45,144 nucleotides of DNA from a virus (lineage: Duplodnaviria; Heunggongvirae; Uroviricota; Caudoviricetes), in the IMG/VR virus record IMGVR_UViG_2851976983_000003, one strand, 5' to 3'. The position numbers and the translations under genes are program-made. Under the pieces are notes generated by a model. The model did no database searches and had not been told where the DNA came from. It worked only from the letters and a program-made list of their open reading frames with translations. This document shows, one piece after another, positions 3,614 to 39,595 of this stretch. The stretch's first letter is position 1. Every line of letters starts with the position of its first letter.

Positions 3614-7891
<4,278 letters not shown>

Positions 7892-7907
7892 ATTCCCCCC
7901 CCCCACA

Positions 7908-8626: not shown

Positions 8627-11600
8627 TCAGCTGATACTGATGCCTGCGGTGGCTTTCTTCATCACCACAACCAGCAAATCGCTGATACTTGCTGTGGGAT
8701 ACCAGTTATTCACCAGCCATGCTGATACCGAAAACTCCAGCGTCATGTGACCGTGACCGGCAGGCATATCAATAACGCCACTGTAAATCAGCGTATTATC
8801 CAGCGCGGTACGGTTATAAATTTCAGCACCGTTTTTCCGCACTATCAGACGGCATGAGGAGTAAATATCAGTATGCTCTCTCTCATGCTTAGCGCCACTG
8901 AATGCCACCGCCGGAATAACAATTTGCCGGTCAAACGGCTGATCGTCATAAACCCTGACGGTAATGGTCCCTGATGGCCACCGCTCCGGTGCACGGGAGT
9001 CCCGGGGGAAAGCTTTGCCCACTGTTTTAACGAGATCGCCTTCAATCTGGTTCGCGGACAGTTTTCCCAGAACCCGGCAGTTCTCGTTAATCGTGACGTT
9101 GTTGAGCGTCCCGGAGTTCGCATTCACACTGCCACTGATATCCGCATTTTTAGCGGTCAGCTTTCCGTCCGGTGTCAGGGAAAATGCCGGAGGATTACCG
9201 CCGCTGGTAATGGTGGGAGCCGTCAGATATTTCAGGAACACTTCGTTCATGAATATCTGATCGCCCTGACCAACAAACATCGGCTTTGTGTTGCCATTCG
9301 CAGGATTAATCATCGCAATCCTGTCTGCCGCCAGCAGCACCTGACTCTGCATGCCTGCTGGCGTATTCTCAATACCGGCACCGATACCCGCGATATAAAG
9401 GCGTCCGTCCTGCATCTGCTGCAGCTTCACAGCCCACATGCTGTTCAGGTTATTATTTGTATCAACCTGAACCTTCTGTATCTGCTGGATCGCTGCACTC
9501 TGGTCTTCCAGTTTCTTATTGACGGTCTGTGTGATTTCATTGCTGACATCCGTAATGGATGTCCTGATTTCAGCCAGGTCAGGCGCAAGCTGACCGTTAT
9601 CAATCTGCGTCCACAGCTCCTGAGCCAGATGGGTTTTCCCTATCTCGCCTTTGAAAAAATCCAGATAGCCGGATGCGTCATCACTCGGCTGACCAACAGC
9701 CTCCACGAATGCCGATTTGCCAACGGTGTTCACACTGCGAACGTAAAAATAATAATTATGGCCCGGCCTGATATTGATACTGGCGGCTATCCAGTACAGC
9801 GCCGTGCCAAGATAGCGTGCTGTGGTTTCAACCTGCCTGATATCCGCAATCCGCTTTTCCGAGAACCAGAACTCAAACTGTACCGTCGGATCATAAACCG
9901 CAAGATGCGGCGTGGCGGTTATCTGAAAATAGCCCGGCGTCAGCTCAATCCGCGACGGTGCTGCCGGTGCGGCAATCCGGAACGATACCGATGCCGGATC
10001 GCCCTGCTGTCCCCACGCATTTACCGCCCGGACTGTCAGCCTGTAATTTCCCAGCGCCAGTTGCGTGAAGCGGTATGTGGTTTCCGTCGTCCTGGCTGTG
10101 CTGACCAGCCGCTCACTGCCGTCATCCGCTGTCACGGTCAGACGGAGCAGGAAACTCACGCCCTTCACCACCTTCGGCGTGTCCCAGCGGGCCAGTACCT
10201 GATACTCCCCGCTGTCTGCGGTGACTTCGGCAGTCAGGTGCTGCACTGCTGGCGGCGTGACACCATTCACCGTGCCGCTCTGGTCGCCGTCAAAGTGCGC
10301 CCCGTTATCCACGATGGCTTCTTTTTCCGGTACATGCTGCACGGCGGTGATGGCATACGTGCCGTCGTCGTTCTCACGGATACTCACGCAGCGGAACAGG
10401 CGCTGGCGTAGCGTCGGCAGCTTCAGCCCCCATACGCTGTATCCGGCAACGCCGTCAGGAACACGGCTCACTTTTACCTTCACGCCGTCGGTGACGGACT
10501 GGACCTCCACGCTGACCGGATTGCCACTTCCGTCAACCAGGCTTATCAGCGTGGTACCGGAGGATGGCAGCGTGATTTCACGGTCGAGCGTCAGCGTCCG
10601 GGTCTGGCTGTTCACCGCCAGCACGCGCCCGCCGGTGCTGATCCCCGCATAGTCATCATCGCAGATTTCAATGACATCGCCCGGCACATGGAGAAGCCCT
10701 TCCGCACCCACGCTGAAGTCCACGGTCTGCGTTTCCAGTAGTTCCGTTTTAATCAGCCACAGCCCGGCGCGGTGCGCCTGCCCCCGGCTGGTACAGCCAA
10801 AAGCATCCATCTTCGTGACGTTACGACCGTAACGGGCAATGGCCTGCGTGTCCTCCACAAGCTCTGTCGCCGTCTCCCAGCCGTTATTCGGGTCAATCCA
10901 GTTCACCTCAACGGCATTATGGCGGTCCTTCAGGGCGCTGAAGCTGTAGCGGAACGGCGCACCATCATCCGGCATCACCACATTACTGCGGTTATAGGTC
11001 CACACCTTATCCGACGGTCGGTCCTGCACGAACGTCAGCGTCTGCCCGTTCCATACCGGCATACAGCGCATCGCCGAGCAGAAATCACTGAGAACATCCC
11101 ACGCCTTGCGCTGTGTGGTCAGCCAGGCATTACAGGTGATGCGCGGCTCCGTGCCACCAAAGCCATCCGGCACCGACTGGTCGCAATTCTGGCCGATGAC
11201 ATACAGCGCCCATTTGTCCACATCCGCCGCACCGAGACGCTTCCCCATGCCGTAGCGCGGATGGGTCAGCATATCCCACAGACACCAGGCCATGTTGTTG
11301 CTGTATGCTGGCTTAAACGTTCCGTCCCAGATACCGCTGTATTGCCGCGTCTGCGGGTTATAGTTCGACGGCACCTGCAGAATGCGCCCGCGAAGATGAT
11401 AATTACGGCTCACCTGCTGGCTGCCGAACTGTTCCGAGTCCACCTGCACGCCGACCAGTGTCGTGTTCGGGTAGCACTGTTTCACATCGATGATTTCGGT
11501 GTATGACGACCAGAGCGTTTTGTTCTGCAGCTGGTCTGTGGTGCTGTCCGGCGTCATTCTGCGCATCCGGATATTAAACGGGCGCGGCGGCAGGTTATCC

Positions 11601-12106
11601 ACCACCACCGAGGCCAGATACTGCGAGGTGGTTTTGCCCTTAATGGTGATGTCTTTTTCCGTCACCCAGCCACCATTACGCTGTATCTGAACCAGCAGGC
11701 GAACTTCCGACGGATTCCGGTCCCCCTTTGAGGTGGTTTCCACCAGTGCCTGCACACCGAAGGTAAAGCGCAGTCGGTCGATGTTTGCCGACGTGATGGC
11801 GCGGGTGATCGGCGTGTCGTATTTCACTTCCGTACCCAACACCGTCTCGGAGCCGGAGGATTCAAATCCCTCCGGCGGAGTCTGCTCCTGCTCACCAGCC
11901 CGGAACACCACCGTGACACCGGCGATGTTGGTATTCCCATCACTGTCCAGCACCGGCGTACTGTTCAGCAGCACGCTTTTTAATCCATCCACCGGACCTT
12001 CAATCGGCCCTTCACTGATGGCATCAATCACACTCAGCAACTGCGTGGACTTCAGGTTGTCCTTCGCTTCGCGCGGGGTATGCCCCTTACTGCTTCCTTT
12101 ACCCAT
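8627..12106 (-). CDS. J: Host specificity / central tail fibre protein J
   Basis: 1159 aa, lambda J-like throughout; position after I and before lom. Confidence 0.95.
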
Positions 12107-12166
12107 TCCTCACGCTCCATAAACGACAAAACCGCCCGCAGGCGGTTTCACATAAAACATTTTGCA

Positions 12167-12808
12167 TCAGCGACCAATCACCACAACCTGACCACCATCC
12201 CCTTCGTCTGCCGTGCTGATCTCCTGAGAAACCACGCGTGACCCCACGCGCATTTCACCGTACAGAACAGGCAGAACATTGCCCTGGGCAACCATGTTAT
12301 CCAGTGAAGAAAAATAGGTGTTCTGTTTGCCGTTATCCGTTGTCTGTGTGCGGGGGGTTTTGGGTTTAGGGGCCAGCATCTGTGCAACACCGCCAAGCGT
12401 CATACTGGCACCGAGAGAAAACAGCAGATTACTCGCCATAATTCCTACCCCCGGCATCCATATAGCAACCGCCATAACAGCCGCCCCCAGCACAGCCTGA
12501 AACACACCGCCACTTTTGGCTCCCGCCAGACGCGGCACGATATGGATCACAGCACCATTTGCCAGCGGTTCATTAAGACGGGCTGATAATTCCGTTTCAC
12601 CTGTATCACGCCCGGCAATGCGTACCTGATACCAGCCGTCGCTCAGCTTCTGACGAAACGCCGGGATCTGCATGGCCAGCGCCCGGATGGCTTCGGCCCC
12701 CGTTTTCACACGCAGATCGATGCGGCGGCCAAATCGTTGTAAATCCCCGTAAAGGCAGATACGTGCCATGCCTGGTGACGCCAGAGGGAGTGTGTGCGTC
12801 GCTGCCAT
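12167..12808 (-). CDS. I: Tail assembly protein I
   Basis: 213 aa, lambda gpI-like. Confidence 0.9.
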   Translation of the reverse strand: MAATHTLPLASPGMARICLYGDLQRFGRRIDLRVKTGAEAIRALAMQIPAFRQKLSDGWYQVRIAGRDTGETELSARLNEPLANGAVIHIVPRLAGAKSGGVFQAVLGAAVMAVAIWMPGVGIMASNLLFSLGASMTLGGVAQMLAPKPKTPRTQTTDNGKQNTYFSSLDNMVAQGNVLPVLYGEMRVGSRVVSQEISTADEGDGGQVVVIGR

Positions 12809-13449
12809 TTGTCGGTATACCTCTCTCGTTTGCTCAGTTGTTCAGGAATATGGTGCAGCAGCTCGCCGTCACCACAGTAAATGGCGGCATGATTCGGCAC
12901 CGATGAACCAAAGCAGCACAGCAGCACATCGCCCGGTTGTGCTGATGACAACGGCACCTGATACAGCCCTGTGGCCTCCAGATTATCCAGATAGAGATTC
13001 TGACCTGATTTCCACCAGTCATCATGTCGGTAAAAATCCGGCAAATCGATACCTGCAAGATGATAGGCATCGCGGAACAGCGTATAACAGTCTGTCACCC
13101 CGTGCTCAAAGCGCCGCCCGGTGAGATGCGGCACACAGCGGAACTTATGAATCACTCCCCGGCAGACCAGCCACCACGGCAAATCACTCTGCACCTGCAG
13201 CCGCCTGTCGGCCTCACTCAGCCAGGGCAGACCAGCGGGGTGGCTGTGGACCAGCGCCACAATCTCACCCTGCATTTCTGCCTGCAGCCAGTCTTCCGGC
13301 GACATACGGAAATACGCCTCCGGCTCACCGGAAATATTCACGCAGGGAAAATATCTTTCCCCCTCCGGCGCTCTCACCACGAAGCCGCACGACTCCGCTG
13401 GCGCACATCGCCGGGCGTGCGCCAGAATCGCTGATTCTGTCTCTGTCAT
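12706..13449 (-). CDS. K: Tail assembly protein K (NlpC/P60 + JAB/MPN-like)
   Basis: Start placed at MTETESAILAHARRCAPAESCGFV by homology with the lambda gpK N-terminus; HSHP metal-binding motif; the ORF track begins 14 codons earlier. Confidence 0.85.
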   Translation of the reverse strand: MTETESAILAHARRCAPAESCGFVVRAPEGERYFPCVNISGEPEAYFRMSPEDWLQAEMQGEIVALVHSHPAGLPWLSEADRRLQVQSDLPWWLVCRGVIHKFRCVPHLTGRRFEHGVTDCYTLFRDAYHLAGIDLPDFYRHDDWWKSGQNLYLDNLEATGLYQVPLSSAQPGDVLLCCFGSSVPNHAAIYCGDGELLHHIPEQLSKRERYTDKWQRRTHSLWRHQAWHVSAFTGIYNDLAAASICV

Positions 13450-13453
13450 GGGA

Positions 13454-14152
13454 TTACTGCGAAAGTTTGTTAATGGAAAGGAAGCCGCCAAAGTTGCCGA
13501 CGTTATTGCGAAACTTACAGCCGCTCAGGCATTTGCTGCATTTATCCTTCGTGATATCGGACGTCGGCTGATCATATTCATCCGCGACCGCCGGACCGTG
13601 ATAACCGCACTCATCGCCGCGATAGGTCCAGATGCAGGTGTTGGCCAGCATGATTCGTCCCGGAAAAACAGCGCCGTCCGTTTCCGTCGGCGTGGACAGT
13701 ACAAAAGAGGCACTGACCGCGCTCAGTTCGCTGCACTGCTCGATGCGCCAGCGGCTGATCACCTCCTGCTCCGGATCGGCGTCACTGTTTCCGTTGACGA
13801 AGTTCACCGCATCCAGAAAACGGGCGTAAACCTTACGCCGGACCACCGTTCCGCCGACCAGACTCTGCAGATCTTCCGCCATCCCGGTGACCATACCGTA
13901 CAGGTTAGAAACCGTCAGCGTGGGGCGCGTACTGGTGCCTTTGCCATTCAGTTCAAAACCACTCCCCTGAATGGGATACGGCTGATACTGTCGCCCCTGC
14001 CAGGTGACCGGCTCACCTTTTTCGTTCTGCTCATTACAGAAAAAATAACGTTCTCCACCGACCTCTGTCAGGTCGATTTCCCAGAGCACCACGCTGGCCG
14101 ACTGCTCCGCACGGGTGCATTCATTCAGTGTTTCCTGTCGGATATCCTGCAT
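13454..14152 (-). CDS. L: Minor tail protein L
   Basis: 232 aa, lambda gpL-like with C-terminal Cys cluster. Confidence 0.9.
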   Translation of the reverse strand: MQDIRQETLNECTRAEQSASVVLWEIDLTEVGGERYFFCNEQNEKGEPVTWQGRQYQPYPIQGSGFELNGKGTSTRPTLTVSNLYGMVTGMAEDLQSLVGGTVVRRKVYARFLDAVNFVNGNSDADPEQEVISRWRIEQCSELSAVSASFVLSTPTETDGAVFPGRIMLANTCIWTYRGDECGYHGPAVADEYDQPTSDITKDKCSKCLSGCKFRNNVGNFGGFLSINKLSQ

Positions 14153-31349: not shown

Positions 31350-32399
31350 TCAAACGATTAAATCCTGAACTTCCCTGACTGTCTGTTCAAAACGTCCTGT
31401 CTCCAGCTCAACACCAATCGCACAACGCCCCAGTGCCATCGCCGCTTTTACCGTTGAACCTGAACCCATAAAAAAATCTGCAACCAGGTCTCCCGGACGA
31501 CTGCTCGCGTTGATTATCTGCTGCAGCATTTCTGCCGGTTTTTCGCACGGATGTTTCCCTGGATAGTACTGCACCGGTTTATGCGTCCAGACATCGGTGT
31601 ACGGAACCTGCGCCGTCACACCGAAATACCGCCGCAAATTTTTATATTCACTCAGCAATTCCGTATACTGCCGGTTCAGCTCACTGTATGTGCTGACCAG
31701 CTGGTGGTGTGGTTTTTCCAGTTCCCCGCGCTGATGTTTTTCTGCCGCAACACGCGCAAACAACGCCTGCAATTTGTTGTAATCACCCTCGTTCGGTAAC
31801 TGCCACTGACTGGTACCAAACCAGTGCGAAGCCATGTTTTTCTTTCCGGTGGCTTCCGCTATCTGTTTTGACGTTATTCCCAGTGATTTACGCGCATCAC
31901 GAAAGTAAGAAATCAGCGGGGCCATGACGTGCTGTTTTAGCTCGCGCCCCTGTGCCACATAGCCATCATCTTTCGGGCGATACGGTCCCTGATAATGTTC
32001 TGCAAACAGAATGCGCTCTGTTGCCGGAAAATACGCCCGCAGACTTTCCTTATTGCACCCGTTCCAGCGTCCGGACGGCTTCGCCCAGATAATGTGGTTC
32101 AGCACATTAAAGCGCTCACGCATCATGATTTCGGTGTCAGATGCCAGGCGATGACCACAGAACAGGTAAAGACTTCCGGCAGGCTTCAGTACCCGCCAGA
32201 ACTGCGCCAGACACTGGTCCAGCCATTTCAGGTAATCATCGTCGCCCTCCCACTGGTTATCCCAGCCCTCGGGCTTCACTTTAAAGTATGGCGGGTCTGT
32301 GACTATCAGATCGACAGAGTTTTCCGGTAAGGTCTGGATAAATTTCAGGCAATCAGCGTTGATTAACTCACAACTGGATATTTTTACAGTATTAGTCAT
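31350..32399 (-). CDS. Orphan DNA methyltransferase (N6-adenine/N4-cytosine, DPPY motif)
   Basis: 349 aa; IVTDPPYF catalytic motif near the N-terminus and FMGSGST SAM-binding motif near the C-terminus; no adjacent restriction endonuclease gene. Confidence 0.85.
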   Translation of the reverse strand: MTNTVKISSCELINADCLKFIQTLPENSVDLIVTDPPYFKVKPEGWDNQWEGDDDYLKWLDQCLAQFWRVLKPAGSLYLFCGHRLASDTEIMMRERFNVLNHIIWAKPSGRWNGCNKESLRAYFPATERILFAEHYQGPYRPKDDGYVAQGRELKQHVMAPLISYFRDARKSLGITSKQIAEATGKKNMASHWFGTSQWQLPNEGDYNKLQALFARVAAEKHQRGELEKPHHQLVSTYSELNRQYTELLSEYKNLRRYFGVTAQVPYTDVWTHKPVQYYPGKHPCEKPAEMLQQIINASSRPGDLVADFFMGSGSTVKAAMALGRCAIGVELETGRFEQTVREVQDLIV

Positions 32400-32549
32400 A
32401 GATCAATAAGCACTTCTCTGATAGGCTCATACTGCTTTTGCGCAAAGCAGATGGGCCTGAGGTTTGCTTGTGACCCCAACGCATGAGCAGATGGCTGGCA
32501 GGTGCCGCTAACACCCACCAGCCGCCCATTACCACAAATTAAAAAGCCT

Positions 32550-32747
32550 TCACTGCAGAAGGCGTCTGTAACAACCGAACTGATAATCTGCCAGACCCGC
32601 CATAACAAGCTGGGTCAGGATTAACTGGCAGCGTTCGCGTGAAAGGTAAGTATTCTGCGCAATTTCCCCGACGGTCGCCGGTTCGGTGACGCTTAATTCA
32701 TTAAACACCACTCTGGCGGTTTCGGTCATATCCTGCTGTTTTAGCAT
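32550..32747 (-). CDS. Hypothetical small protein (possible winged-helix/HTH)
   Basis: Start placed at MLKQQDMTETARVVFNELSV…; short ORF upstream of the methyltransferase; function unknown. Confidence 0.35.
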   Translation of the reverse strand: MLKQQDMTETARVVFNELSVTEPATVGEIAQNTYLSRERCQLILTQLVMAGLADYQFGCYRRLLQ

Positions 32748-32966
32748 GTCTTTTTCCCTTTTCTGGTTAACGTGACATACCAATAACTCTTGTCTAAAAA
32801 GCCAGCAAGCTGAAAGACCGGTATTCGCAACCACCAGCGCGTTTAACGTACTGCATCAATTTTCGAGCATAAAAAGACCGCCTGAGGGCAGCCTTTTTAC
32901 ATTAAAATTAAGTTTTCTTTAACTATGTTGTATGTGAAATTAGCATTCCCTACTGAGTTTATACAA

Positions 32967-33710
32967 CTAATCTGACGTCACACGCACCATTATACTTACT
33001 AAAGAAAAGTCATCATCAGGTCCGGCTCTCTCTATACGACGCAAAATGCCATTAGAAAACTTCTGACTATTACTCATCGTATTTGATGTAAATCTGGGGC
33101 GTTTTTCCCAAACGTTATGAACCCCATCAGACATGATACACAGATGATATACCCCGTTAATACTAGGTAAATCTTTCCATGTGATAAAATCACAGTCGTA
33201 TTCCATATCAACATTTGAGGCTATAGCCGTCGTTAAGATATTTTTGCCCGGTTTATCCTTCAAATCTCTGGGTTTAAAAATATTCTGATCAATTAGCATC
33301 TGATGCCTGGTATCGTCCTTCGTCAATTGGTATGCTTTCTTCTCTCCAATGCAATACAAACGACAATCACCAATATGACCAATAATAATTCCGCTATCAC
33401 AAACATAACAAAACGTAAGTGTAGTAGCAGCTTTATCGAACTCATCATTAACATCAGCTAACGACATAACCTTTCGCTTAACTTCATCAAATACATCCGG
33501 AACTGTGTCAAAAGATAAGCTTGTCAATGCTGAAAGTTCAGCAATTGCCATTGATGAAGCCTGACTGGCACCAGTGTATGAACCTACACCATCAGCTACG
33601 GCAAATAAGATGCCATCCCCTACAATTTTGGGAGGAAGCAATGAATCTTCGTTGACCCTACCTGGTTCTTTTGGATACGAGAATGATGAAGTCGCTATCA
33701 GCTGAATCAT
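32967..33710 (-). CDS. PP2C-family Ser/Thr protein phosphatase
   Basis: 247 aa; PP2C motifs AVADGVGS, GDCRLY, SDGV and a C-terminal acidic DDD cluster; start ATG overlaps the kinase stop (ATGA). Confidence 0.8.
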   Translation of the reverse strand: MIQLIATSSFSYPKEPGRVNEDSLLPPKIVGDGILFAVADGVGSYTGASQASSMAIAELSALTSLSFDTVPDVFDEVKRKVMSLADVNDEFDKAATTLTFCYVCDSGIIIGHIGDCRLYCIGEKKAYQLTKDDTRHQMLIDQNIFKPRDLKDKPGKNILTTAIASNVDMEYDCDFITWKDLPSINGVYHLCIMSDGVHNVWEKRPRFTSNTMSNSQKFSNGILRRIERAGPDDDFSLVSIMVRVTSD

Positions 33711-34471
33711 GACTCACTCCTTAAAAAAGAATGCACAAAATCAAACGCCACATCATCTATTGTCTGATATCTATCATCTTTATCCATCCTGGTACACTTC
33801 GCTATGATAGGCTTTATTTTTTTATCATCTAAATTTAAGTCCTCAATTAACCGCCCCACCGCATAAACATCAGTCTTAACTGAATACTCGGCATTATATA
33901 AAATCTCGGGAGCCATATATCTTGTACTTCCCATACGGGTACCGATCTCGGTCAATTTAGTGGTATCCCCTTCGGGATTTGTATCTTTTACCAGACCAAA
34001 ATCAGACACCTTGTATGTTCCGTCGCTAAATCGCAAGACATTAAATGGTTTTATATCTCTGTGTAAATAGCCTTTCGCATGGATGTGAGCTACACCATCT
34101 AATACCATTTTCACTATTGAAATTTTTTGATCTGTTGTAAGAAGGTTGTTCGTTATTTCGTGCTCAAGATCACATTCTGCTTTATCCATAATGAACCATG
34201 GATTCTCGGCAAACAAATCGCACAAATAAATAGGAACAATATTGCTATGTACGCAATGTGATTGATACACGACCTCCCTTTTAAAACGCCTTCTAAACTG
34301 CTCTATTTGCGCCAAAAGCTCTGGTTTTTCGGGGGCTAAAACCTTTCTAGCATAATCCCCACATTCACCCTTGTTGAGGTTGTAAACCTTAACGTGTTCA
34401 ACAAAGCCAAATGCACCCCTTCCAATCAACTGAATTCGTTTTATAAAGTAATTACCGTGCTGTTCTTCCAT
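33707..34471 (-). CDS. Hanks-type (eukaryotic-like) Ser/Thr protein kinase
   Basis: Complete catalytic motif set: G-loop GRGAFG, lysine in YARKV, HRDIKPFN catalytic loop, DFG, APE (YMAPE), DVYAVG. Start placed at MEEQHGNYF; the ORF track starts 25 codons upstream. AT-rich. Confidence 0.85.
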   Translation of the reverse strand: MEEQHGNYFIKRIQLIGRGAFGFVEHVKVYNLNKGECGDYARKVLAPEKPELLAQIEQFRRRFKREVVYQSHCVHSNIVPIYLCDLFAENPWFIMDKAECDLEHEITNNLLTTDQKISIVKMVLDGVAHIHAKGYLHRDIKPFNVLRFSDGTYKVSDFGLVKDTNPEGDTTKLTEIGTRMGSTRYMAPEILYNAEYSVKTDVYAVGRLIEDLNLDDKKIKPIIAKCTRMDKDDRYQTIDDVAFDFVHSFLRSES

Positions 34472-34544
34472 TAAGCTCACCGACCTAAATTGTAAGAATA
34501 TCCATATCTTACAACTACAGATAAAAAGGTCCACAGAGTTAAGC

Positions 34545-36724: not shown

Positions 36725-37084
36725 TTACCTCCAGATGCGTTGCTGGAATGTGCGGGACGGACGCGGTGGGCGTTCAGAGTAAGGAAGCCTGACGGAGATT
36801 ATCCAGTGACGATAATCGAGGCTGAGGGCTTTCTTAATCTCGTATCCGTGTCTGCGGTAGCACTGAATTAGCCACTCGGCCTGTTCTTCAGTGCATGGGG
36901 GATGCTGGAGCCAGTCAGATTTGAAAGTGCGGGAACGCCGCCCGTGCCTGCTGGCAAAGACGGCAGAATCATCAGAATTGTGTAATTTGGTATCGTGCGC
37001 CATCGGTTGTCTCTGCTGGCGCAGCAGGTGCCAGTTGTTCAGGCTGGCGTGCGAATTGTAAACCAGAATGCCAGGAAAAAACAA
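36725..37084 (-). CDS. Hypothetical protein (real start likely at the internal Met near 37003)
   Basis: ORF abutting the DUF968 gene; the 5' end of the long ORF overlaps an upstream terminator hairpin, arguing for the shorter form. Confidence 0.35.
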   Translation of the reverse strand: MFFPGILVYNSHASLNNWHLLRQQRQPMAHDTKLHNSDDSAVFASRHGRRSRTFKSDWLQHPPCTEEQAEWLIQCYRRHGYEIKKALSLDYRHWIISVRLPYSERPPRPSRTFQQRIWR

Positions 37085-37100
37085 AACCCGCCGAAGCGGG
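37076..37100 (-). terminator. Rho-independent terminator downstream of the lipoprotein gene
   Basis: acccgc-ttcg-gcgggt hairpin followed on the minus strand by TTTTGTTTTTT. Confidence 0.5.
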
Positions 37101-37299
37101 TATGCTAAAACAAACTGAAAGTAATATACCGGACTTGTAAAGGAACGATAGAATAATTATTGGATTAAACCCTGACTCAATCCAGATTTCATAGGCAACA
37201 ACTACGGACTAATCATCACAGTCATGTTTGATAGGCTTAGTCCACATTGGGTGAGGGTTTACGGCGTTTTCACTAATAATTTATCGTCCAAGCTATACA

Positions 37300-37692
37300 C
37301 TACTGCCCTGTTTTAACGAAGTTTTTAAAGGAAACAACTGCCTGATAGGGGTTTGGTTGACAGCCAAACATATTATCGCAAAAAGGCTTGATGAAAATTC
37401 TTGAGGATCCATCTTCATTTGGCATTTTACTCACTTGATAAGCGAGGAATGGACTATTTGGAGAGGGATTATAAGTGGAAATTAGCGTGTCTGTCGCCGT
37501 TTGAATTTTCCATGAGGAATTATTAGCCAACCAGAATTGCGCTCGTTTCCAATAAAAGTCACATTGCTTTTCATCATTACATGTTAGTGGCTTCATTGCT
37601 TCTGCTTTCAACGCTGGATCGACCTTTGCTGCACACCCTCCCAACATTACTGTTGCAATCATTACACCTGCGACTAAAACAAGTTTCTTCAT
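37300..37692 (-). CDS. Putative lipoprotein (moron, AT-rich)
   Basis: 130 aa; signal peptide with lipobox MLGGC (MKKLVLVAGVMIATVMLGGCAAK); several Cys in the mature part. Confidence 0.6.
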   Translation of the reverse strand: MKKLVLVAGVMIATVMLGGCAAKVDPALKAEAMKPLTCNDEKQCDFYWKRAQFWLANNSSWKIQTATDTLISTYNPSPNSPFLAYQVSKMPNEDGSSRIFIKPFCDNMFGCQPNPYQAVVSFKNFVKTGQ

Positions 37693-37753
37693 ATCCCTGT
37701 GAACCGCCCCGGAAATCCTGGAGACTAAACTCCCTGAGAAAGAGGTAAACAGG

Positions 37754-38080
37754 ATGACTAAAAATACTCGTTTTTCCCCCGAAGTCCGTCAGCGGGCGAT
37801 TCGTATGGTTCTGGAAAGTCAGGATGAATATGACTCACAGTGGGCGGCAATTTGTTCCATTGCCCCAAAGATTGGCTGTACGCCGGAGACTCTGCGTGTC
37901 TGGGTTCGCCAGCATGAGCGGGATACCGGGGGCGGTGATGGTGGGCTCACCAGCGCTGAACGTCAGCGTCTGAAAGAGCTGGAACGTGAAAATCGTGAAC
38001 TGCGCCGCAGTAACGATATCCTTCGCCAGGCTTCCGCTTATTTTGCGAAGGCGGAGTTCGACCGCCTCTGGAAAAAATGA
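37754..38080 (+). CDS. IS3-family transposase OrfA (HTH/leucine zipper)
   Basis: 108 aa, [50 protein letters not shown]…. Confidence 0.9.
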
Positions 38081-38967
38081 TGCCACTGCTGGATAAGCTG
38101 CGTGAGCAGTACGGGGTCGGACCGGTATGCAGCGAACTGCATATTGCCCCGTCAACGTATTACCATTGTCAGCAACAGCGACATCATCCGGATAAACGCA
38201 GTGCCCGTGCGCAGCACGACGACTGGCTGAAGAGAGAGATACAGCGCGTATACGATGAAAATCATCAGGTGTACGGTGTGCGTAAAGTCTGGCGTCAGTT
38301 GTTACGGGAAGGAATCAGGGTGGCCAGATGTACAGTGGCACGTCTCATGGCGGTTATGGGACTTGCCGGTGTTCTCCGGGGTAAAAAGGTCCGTACGACC
38401 ATCAGCCGGAAAGCCGTTGCCGCAGGCGACCGCGTAAACCGTCAGTTCGTGGCAGAACGACCTGACCAGCTGTGGGTGGCTGATTTTACTTACGTCAGCA
38501 CATGGCAGGGCTTCGTCTATGTGGCGTTTATCATTGATGTGTTTGCCGGATACATCGTGGGGTGGCGGGTCTCATCGTCTATGGAAACGACATTCGTGCT
38601 GGATGCGCTGGAGCAGGCGTTGTGGGCCCGTCGTCCGTCTGGCACCATCCATCACAGCGATAAAGGCTCTCAGTATGTGTCACTGGCCTATACGGAGCGA
38701 CTAAAAGAAGCCGGATTACTGGCATCAACAGGGAGTACAGGCGACTCGTATGACAACGCGATGGCTGAGAGCATCAATGGTCTTTACAAAGCGGAGGTAA
38801 TACACCGTAAGAGCTGGAAAAACCGTGCAGAAGTGGAACTGGCCACACTAACGTGGGTGGACTGGTATAACAATCGACGATTGCTGGGAAGGCTGGGCCA
38901 TACTCCTCCGGCAGAAGCAGAAAAAGCTTATTATGCTTCCATCGGAAACGATGATCTGGCAGCCTGA
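38077..38967 (+). CDS. IS3-family transposase OrfB (DDE integrase core)
   Basis: 296 aa with DDE/rve-type core (…WVADFTYV…HHSDKGSQY…DNAMAES…); overlaps orfA. Confidence 0.9.
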
Positions 38968-39149
38968 GTTCACAGATAAAACACTCTCCAGGAAACCCGG
39001 GGCGGTTCACTGCCCCATCAATAAAAGTTCGGTTCTCTAATAACTAGAGTTAATCAACGAAAAAAAACGCCGAAGCGGGTTAAGTGCGGGTGCGTTGAGG
39101 ATGCCTGACTCATCAGAGGTGGCGAGGGATTTCTCCCTCACCTGGTCTC

Positions 39150-39305
39150 TTACTCCTCAGGTTCGTAAGCTGTGAAGACAGCGACCTCCGTCTGGCCGGT
39201 TCGGATTCGTACCTCGCAGAGGTCTTTCCTCGTTACCAGTGCCGTCACTATGACGGTTAAACAGATGACGATCAGGGCGATTAACATCGCCTTTTGCTGC
39301 TTCAT
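39150..39305 (-). CDS. hok: Hok/Gef-family type I toxin (HokD-like)
   Basis: 51 aa MKQQKAMLIALIVICLTVIVTALVTRKDLCEVRIRTGQTEVAVFTAYEPEE, a canonical Hok sequence; the in-frame upstream extension in the ORF track (39150-39362) could be a mok-like leader frame. Confidence 0.85.
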   Translation of the reverse strand: MKQQKAMLIALIVICLTVIVTALVTRKDLCEVRIRTGQTEVAVFTAYEPEE

Positions 39306-39595
39306 AGCCTGCTTCTCCTTGCCTTTCGGCACGTAAGAGGCTAACCTAGATTTGCCGTTCATAGATTGAGCCTCAGATTAATGTTAAGCGTCTTGCAGGA
39401 CGCGTAATGTTAACTGGGGCTTTTCTCTATCTGCCTTTGGTGTTCATGCCTGAGACAGATAGCCTCAAGCACCCGCAGCAATTCTACTTAACTCCCCTTT
39501 CACTGCAAACCGTTTTTATCCCCAGCGGCAAATCGAATACACAACAAGTGCTACCGCCATTGCAATTCCTGTCGTTGTGAATGCCTCCGGCCAGG

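Follow-up and report, generated by a model that had tools for sequence, protein, structure and literature searches.

An accessory lipoprotein gene carried by a lambdoid prophage of a heat-stable-toxin-only (ST-only) ETEC lineage has had its 5′ leader interrupted by an intact copy of the insertion sequence IS629, and the probable outcome is a gene that is silenced or strongly down-regulated and is drifting towards a pseudogene, as part of neutral prophage decay. Judged from the anatomy of the site, silencing is a likely consequence and the one most to be expected, because the upstream signals have been cut off, the left end of the IS has no credible promoter, and the 7-nt leader that is left is too short. 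The whole stretch of DNA analysed (45,144 nucleotides) is called here the window; over the 8.3 kb surrounding the insertion it is identical to strain 503025. The features are listed in Table 1.

The left border of the element, at 37700, starts with TGAACCGCCCCGG and the right border, at 39009, closes with CCGGGGCGGTTCA. It had been described in an earlier note as IS629-like and can now be named more firmly as IS629 itself, given the 100% identity over 1310 bp with IS629/IS1203 copies from many genomes, for example O157:H7 PV15-279 and strain 9234. The length and the 3-bp CTG duplication given in that note were both confirmed by the borders and by the two copies of the duplication. In the identical locus of strain 503025, RefSeq labels the element as [quoted passage not shown]. 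The inverted repeats, of 25 nt each, agree at 22 positions (counted by eye) and have TG...CA termini (TGAACC... and ...GGTTCA). The two reading frames overlap and are joined via a programmed −1 frameshift, and both are intact, being identical in sequence to those of active IS629 copies. The GC content of this copy is 54.0%, compared with 51.0% in the whole window.

Table 1. Coordinates of the features around the IS629 insertion (positions in the window).
Feature	Position	Strand	Basis or remarks
Complete IS629 (IS1203v), IS3 family	37700..39009	+	1310 bp; full-length identity 100% to IS629/IS1203 copies
Left inverted repeat (IRL)	37700..37724	+	Repeat finder; starts TG; end abutting the lipoprotein gene
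Right inverted repeat (IRR)	38985..39009	+	Repeat finder; ends CA
Target-site duplication CTG, left copy	37697..37699	.	Sequence reading; the empty site has a single CTG
Target-site duplication CTG, right copy	39010..39012	.	Sequence reading
orfA, 108 aa, HTH_Tnp_1	37754..38080	+	Pfam PF01527, E 2.4e-12; NCBIfam transpos_IS3, N-terminal part
orfB, 296 aa, DDE integrase core	38077..38967	+	Pfam rve, E 9e-28, and HTH_21; NCBIfam transpos_IS3, 316 bits
ALIL frameshift-stimulating pseudoknot	38035..38151	+	Rfam RF01497, 121.5 bits, E 2e-32; spans the orfA/orfB overlap
Lipoprotein gene, 130 aa, WP_000737636.1, phrog_16082	37300..37692	-	Lipobox LGGC; 4 conserved Cys in the mature part
Remaining native upstream sequence, CAGGGAT	37693..37699	-	Sole native stretch still attached to the ORF
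Displaced cassette-specific 5′ region (leader and presumed promoter)	39013..39059	-	Contiguous with the ORF in IS-free alleles
Degenerate hokD terminator copy, AACCCGCTTCGGCG-TTTTTTTT	39060..39085	-	3-bp stem; K-12 Qin comparison and folding
Intact terminator closing the cassette, ACCCGCTTCGGCGGGT and T-run	37076..37101	-	Terminator scan, 37101..37086
hokD toxin gene, upstream neighbour of the lipoprotein gene	39150..39305	-	Pfam HOK_GEF, E 3e-23; RefSeq
Rfam "sok antitoxin" RF01794 match, hokD 5′ control region, hokD strand	39300..39474	-	110 bits, E 1.7e-25

IS629 is well known from EHEC (PMC9943667), gene inactivation and adjacent deletions have been attributed to it (PMC9943667, PMC9330008), and related copies were found in 4252 of the 5426 complete E. 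coli genomes. The copy studied here agrees with the element as catalogued in EHEC O157:H7 in its 1310 bp, its inverted repeats, the −1 frameshift between orfA and orfB and the ALIL pseudoknot. It also shares the 3-bp duplication, the insertion within a prophage and, in one strain (TW10573), a small adjacent deletion that keeps the IS intact (PMC9330008, PMC9943667). The host is different, since the carriers are ST-only ETEC and the chromosome of 503025 has IS629 at 3 places, against 30-40 in O157 records.

To reconstruct the empty site, the two flanks (250 bp each) were joined after removal of the IS and one CTG, and this 500-bp query was matched in one piece in 250 of the 5426 complete E. coli genomes, with identity up to 98.8%. 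This count refers to the hokD-lipoprotein junction with at least 80% of the 500-bp query matched; some part of the query, mostly the hokD half, was matched in 4704 genomes. In STEC299 the junction without the IS reads ...TTCTTCATTTCCCTG directly followed by CCCCATCAATAAAAG..., with one CTG. E. coli 042 is a further IS-free carrier. Two induced phages, vB_EcoS-689R5 and vB_EcoM-606R7, likewise have the cassette without the IS, in the order hok, lipoprotein, ydfU-like, rusA and Q. The comparison with IS-free alleles that the earlier note proposed is thus provided by 250 genomes and two phages, and its result is the opposite of the same junction standing below the same upstream sequence without an IS: the IS-free alleles carry the right flank of the window upstream of the gene. 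This is a true IS insertion, and alleles free of it are widespread. The occupied site, with both its left and right junctions, was present among the 5426 complete genomes only in 503025, 503440 and 503829 (India) and in TW10573 (Guinea-Bissau). These strain names are mentioned in publications about ST-only ETEC with CFA/I and CS6 and about competition among ETEC (PMC6446980, PMC10761095). A paper on this IS629 site was not found in the literature searched, and the IS there is annotated by RefSeq.

Over 8.2 kb, TW10573 is separated from the window by only 3 substitutions and by a deletion of 49 bp. The deletion starts from the exact left end of the IS, with TG microhomology, and has taken away the left copy of CTG together with the ATG and 14 codons. 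The residual annotated ORF starts with MLGGC, without most of the signal peptide. The assembly of this strain is nanopore-based with Illumina data, and the deletion is probably real. Decay of the gene is not general, because three of the four carrier strains retain an intact ORF.

According to the RefSeq annotation of strain 503025, the lambdoid prophage adjoins potB and its early region contains the repressor, cro, ydaT, the replication genes and hokD. Past hokD come the IS, the lipoprotein gene, a small ORF, a DUF968 gene, rusA and Q, so that the insertion falls in the nin region, that is, between the replication genes and Q. Located 3′ of Q are a Ser/Thr kinase and a PP2C phosphatase, a methyltransferase and tRNAs, and then the lysis, head and tail genes. 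The genes from cro to Q are all on the strand of the lipoprotein gene, and the IS transposase is on the opposite one. A second IS, IS100-like and of the IS21 family, is found at 5062-7013 inside the side tail-fibre gene, with a 7-bp duplication; no complete genome, 503025 included, has this element there.

In the Qin prophage of K-12 the order is hokD, terminator and rem; here hokD is followed by a degenerate terminator, and the lipoprotein gene comes next, closed by an intact terminator. Homology to Qin stops at the hokD terminator (around 39061 in the window) and restarts near 37020; Qin is without the lipoprotein gene, and rem occupies that place. The fold of the degenerate upstream terminator is −5.6 kcal/mol, compared with −11.8 kcal/mol in K-12, and the intact downstream terminator matches the hokD terminator of K-12 at 96% and folds with −13.1 kcal/mol. 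Homologues of the lipoprotein form 16 clusters, all of them from Enterobacterales and all named hypothetical. In Enterobacter hormaechei the gene is flanked by the tape-measure gene and minor tail gene M, in Pantoea ananatis by tail genes I and J, and in Phytobacter it is inside a prophage remnant; in these three genera a terminator-like hairpin is seen 3′ of each homologue (by eye). An upstream block, TTTTAYTGATGGGG, is common to the alleles of E. coli, Enterobacter and Pantoea in unrelated contexts. Considering that the gene is absent in Qin, that there are two copies of the terminator and that the homologues are at other positions, the comparison gives good support to a true mobile cassette, or moron, that is bounded by terminators. 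This agrees with the earlier note, which had called the gene a moron; composition, presence or absence, varied position and the 3′ terminator all fit.

Known phage morons include bor and lom of lambda and those of HK97 and HK022, the latter reportedly treated by Hendrix and Juhala. The present gene resembles them as an AT-rich extra gene (40% versus 51% GC), patchy among related prophages, of varying position in the genome, closed by an intrinsic terminator and coding for a protein of the cell envelope. It departs from them in that the E. coli allele is without a recognisable sigma-70 promoter and the upstream copy of the terminator is degenerate; therefore, the gene may depend on read-through from hokD.

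As had been noted, the lipoprotein gene is AT-rich and lies on the opposite strand to the IS: the GC content is 40.2% in the minus-strand ORF and 39.3% in the region 37100-37699, and the lipobox has an invariant Cys. The signal peptide is formed by MKK and a hydrophobic core, with MKKLVLVAGVMIATVMLGG followed by the Cys of the lipobox L-G-G-C20. C20 is invariant in 13 homologues, whose lipoboxes include LSGC, LVGC and LTAC; an Ala follows the lipid-modified Cys, and four Cys are conserved in the mature part. Searches with the protein matched no family in Pfam or NCBIfam and nothing meaningful by sequence in the PDB, and in PHROGs they gave families without known function (phrog_16082) and a match to Cor limited to the signal peptide. 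The fold is a generic alpha/beta one and gives no clue to the function. In common with Cor and with Llp of T5, which act in superinfection exclusion, this is a small prophage-encoded lipoprotein of outer-membrane type, and in other genera its homologues have tail genes J and M as neighbours; the similarity to Cor is confined to the signal peptide (phrog_1119, E 0.007, residues 1-44). Taking into account that it is a prophage lipoprotein with tail genes as neighbours in other genera, a role at the surface or in exclusion might be guessed at.

The spacing of 7 bp between the IS and the start codon, already given in the earlier note, holds: the ATG is at 37692, the IS begins at 37700, and the 7 bp in between (37693-37699, ATCCCTG on the + strand) include 3 of the duplication. 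A normal leader would not fit into seven nucleotides. The insertion has moved all that was upstream of −7 to a distance of 1313 bp from the ORF: a cassette-specific 5′ region of about 47 nt, part of a G-rich ribosome-binding stretch and any read-through from hokD. In the IS-free state, the approximately 47 nt stand between the degenerate terminator and −7. The ribosome-binding stretch, GGGGCAGGG, was split by the insertion, and its pairing with the anti-SD sequence changes from −8.2 kcal/mol to −4.9 kcal/mol in the retained CAGGGAU. AGGGA is kept at −6 to −2, 1 nt from the ATG, the GGGG run at −11 to −8 is lost, and a G-run supplied by the IS at −18 to −12 is too far away.

In the mechanism that we propose, the ORF would have been severed from the 47-nt region with the conserved leader TTTTAYTGATGGGG and also, in the homologues, an extended −10 promoter, and equally from the better-placed part of the G-run and from any read-through of hokD or the early-right operon. 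A transcript entering at the hokD end would need to run through 1.3 kb of untranslated, C-rich RNA antisense to the IS. This RNA has 393 C against 314 G, a C/G ratio above 1.3 in 60 of 124 windows along it and no long ORF, which would make Rho-dependent termination within it likely.

Promoters were sought by two scans, one for the consensus and the other with a home-made, approximate position-weight matrix, for which the background was the best score per 250 nt of the window (6.17 ± 2.09). The consensus scan found no promoter in the IS-free E. coli allele, and its best matrix score, 5.38, was under the background mean. The homologues of Enterobacter and Pantoea have plausible extended −10 sites of the form TGnTAGGAT. 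The first, TGTTAGGAT, has its end at −33 and scores 8.1; the second, TGATAGGAT, reaches −27 and scores 7.6. The E. coli sequence aligned to them is AGTTATTAG. It may be that the E. coli gene is served by a weak or non-canonical promoter, or by read-through of the crippled hokD terminator; every possible native source of transcription is upstream of the insertion point. The claim that the native promoter was displaced thus stands in part: the whole upstream region has moved, and a canonical promoter was not found in it in the E. coli allele. Since the IS-free allele has no convincing sigma-70 promoter, the gene may have been poorly expressed before the insertion, and the IS would then be functionally irrelevant. 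Two further candidates were rejected. A sigma-E promoter (GAACTT at −25 to −20) has no TCAAA-like −10 at the right distance, which would coincide with the ATG, and for a hybrid promoter with TTCACA at the joint between IS and flank any matching −10 would be inside the ORF, which would give no full-length protein.

The earlier note had allowed the IS either to silence the gene or to supply an outward-facing promoter. Of these, silencing is favoured by the anatomy described above, and activation went unsupported, as two scans of the left end gave no site above background. That the left end provides a promoter, alone or as a hybrid with the flank, and renders the gene constitutive or activated, is in our opinion very unlikely. 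An IS adjoining an ORF is the classic geometry for such activation, AGGGA is retained, and there is a candidate, TTTACC-16-TAGTCT, whose −10 stops at −29 relative to the ATG. However, its score of 6.27 is level with the average best score that random 250-nt stretches of the window give, and the stricter consensus scan showed no outward site; scores were also low at the right end of the IS and at the circle junction. This candidate could be, at best, a weak promoter of low-level outward activity. The retained AGGGA, moreover, is too close to the ATG, with the better-spaced GGGG gone, and the later deletion of the start codon in TW10573 is not suggestive of a selected gain of expression. In IS3 itself, P3R is, judging from its name, presumably a promoter of the right end, whereas here the left end faces the gene. 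No outward promoter of IS629 was described in the literature searched. Some IS3-family elements do have outward promoters, for example P3R of IS3 (PMC8860574), and the known activations by such promoters (PMC8860574, PMC9330008) have in common with our case an IS immediately upstream of the ORF; nevertheless, the wrong IS end is facing the gene here, no promoter motif exceeds background, and there is just a spacer of 7 nt with a truncated ribosome-binding site.

It could also be considered that transcripts of hokD, or antiterminated early-right transcripts, cross the antisense strand of the IS and still reach the ORF, so that the insertion matters little, at any rate during prophage induction. 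The genes from cro to Q, with hokD and the lipoprotein gene among them, are on one strand, the upstream terminator copy is degenerate, and the antisense strand of the IS has one weak terminator-like hairpin only (39000..38988). We find this quite unlikely all the same, considering that the antisense RNA is a plausible Rho substrate, that, wherever transcription starts, the message no longer has the well-spaced part of its ribosome-binding site, that no N-like antiterminator was identified within the window, and that the early operon is repressed in the lysogen. An effect on the neighbours, with the IS exerting polarity over the early-right operon (which would reduce Q and late expression and lock in the prophage) or altering the 3′ end of the hokD mRNA, is unlikely too. 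The IS does lie in the transcription path between the replication genes and Q, its position is 137 nt downstream of the hokD stop, and in C325 and some 17 further genomes independent IS629 copies are found 3′ of another hokD. Pedersen and Gerdes (1999) are said to have described chromosomal hok loci of K-12 with IS150 or IS186 directly downstream, IS elements just 3′ of several hok genes reportedly inactivating them. The present locus is similar to those in the short distance between the IS and the 3′ side of a hok toxin gene, and is different in that the IS is inside the leader of the next gene and that the hokD fold-back (fbi) element, CCTCAACGCACCC at approximately 39100-39088, which pairs with GGGTGCTTGAGG of the 5′ region (by eye), is intact together with the terminator remnant. 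Both of these stand upstream of the insertion, and a disrupted control of hokD was rejected on this ground. An IS629 hot spot 3′ of hok was likewise rejected, because the C325-type insertions have unrelated flanking sequence. Polarity, in any case, is compatible with a silenced lipoprotein gene and is not an alternative to silencing. A joint reading, in which a wandering moron with a BamC-N/Flpp3-like fold encodes a surface or superinfection-exclusion factor and IS629 rewires or inactivates it, is highly improbable; if true, a weak promoter in IRL would uncouple the lipoprotein from prophage control or, alternatively, inactivation would carry a phage-susceptibility phenotype.

Silencing of the lipoprotein gene therefore remains the preferred reading, and neutral prophage decay driven by IS elements is the best account of the event. 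It is ordinary, already-known biology, a routine insertion of IS629 into a prophage accessory gene, and has little importance beyond bookkeeping as one more IS629 insertion that probably inactivates such a gene. Mildly useful is the description of a mobile, terminator-bounded lipoprotein cassette whose position varies among lambdoid prophages. The insertion is also usable as a lineage marker for a small clade of ST-only ETEC from India and Guinea-Bissau, and the locus illustrates a stepwise IS-driven decay: first the insertion, next a deletion beside it and, in the tail-fibre gene, a second IS.

At the left end of IS629, the strain TW10573 (locus L003, NZ_CP127035.1, 4090-4110) has lost 49 bp directly adjoining the element. 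The deletion, which corresponds to window 37651-37699 and shows a TG microhomology, removed the left copy of the duplication and, from the lipoprotein gene, the start codon plus 14 codons; it is a typical IS629 adjacent deletion. An IS629-type copy (97%) was also observed downstream of another hokD in C325 (locus L007, NZ_CP124819.1, 1-3150), in a different lambdoid prophage. That copy, which a group II intron (ltrA) has split, has flanks unrelated to the insertion site of the window and is independent of the one described here; its arrangement beyond hokD is common to about 18 genomes.

The second IS of the window is an IS100-like element of the IS21 family (5062-7013; about 98% to annotated IS100) located inside the side tail-fibre gene and flanked by a 7-bp duplication (5055-5061 = 7014-7020).

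Coding regions of the IS100-like element and of the tail-fibre gene that it splits (window coordinates)
Feature	Position	Strand	Remark
istA	5146-6168	+	part of IS100-like element
istB	6165-6947	+	part of IS100-like element
tail-fibre half	6998..7906	-	split by IS100-like element
tail-fibre half	3614..5089	-	split by IS100-like element

This insertion is absent from 503025, and no complete E. coli genome carries it at the tail-fibre site of the window; thus, the window prophage is that of a relative of 503025, decayed further. By the RefSeq annotation of 503025, a Ser/Thr kinase and PP2C phosphatase pair, a DNA methyltransferase and three tRNA genes (Ile, Thr, Gly) lie downstream of Q, at window about 31400-34500 (placed from L004, the 503025 locus, 10674-13795, in reverse orientation).

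With a strong Rfam sok match (39300-39474, minus strand) and a 3′ element, CCTCAACGCACCC (39088-39100, minus strand), complementary to the 5′ GGGTGCTTGAGG (about 39455-39466, minus strand), the hokD locus looks complete. The complementarity resembles the tac-fbi fold-back pairing in hok mRNAs, and both elements are upstream of IS629. The hokD terminator occurs on both sides of the lipoprotein cassette, as a degenerate copy upstream (39060-39085) and an intact one downstream (37076-37101), and this bracketing includes a 13-bp direct repeat, ACCCGCTTCGGCG. The stretch from the lipoprotein stop codon to the cassette terminator (37102-37299) is AT-rich and about 200 nt long; no convincing ORF was found in it, and in phage records a short "mobile element protein" is annotated here on the other strand. 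In K-12 Qin the position of the cassette is occupied by rem. A similar terminator (AGCCCGCTTCGGTGGGTTTTG) is also present at the start of one Enterobacter homologue, which suggests that the cassette moved by recombination at terminator hairpins.

Lipoprotein homologues were located in prophage tail modules (L009 2421-2977, L011 2416-2939 and L012 2501-2884, loci of other genera): in Enterobacter the gene separates tape measure from M, and in Pantoea its neighbours are I and J. Every homologue has a terminator-like hairpin of its own behind it, as judged by eye, and an extended -10-like site (TGnTAGGAT) is present in the copies from Enterobacter and Pantoea. The lipoprotein gene is therefore a mobile moron whose genome position varies.
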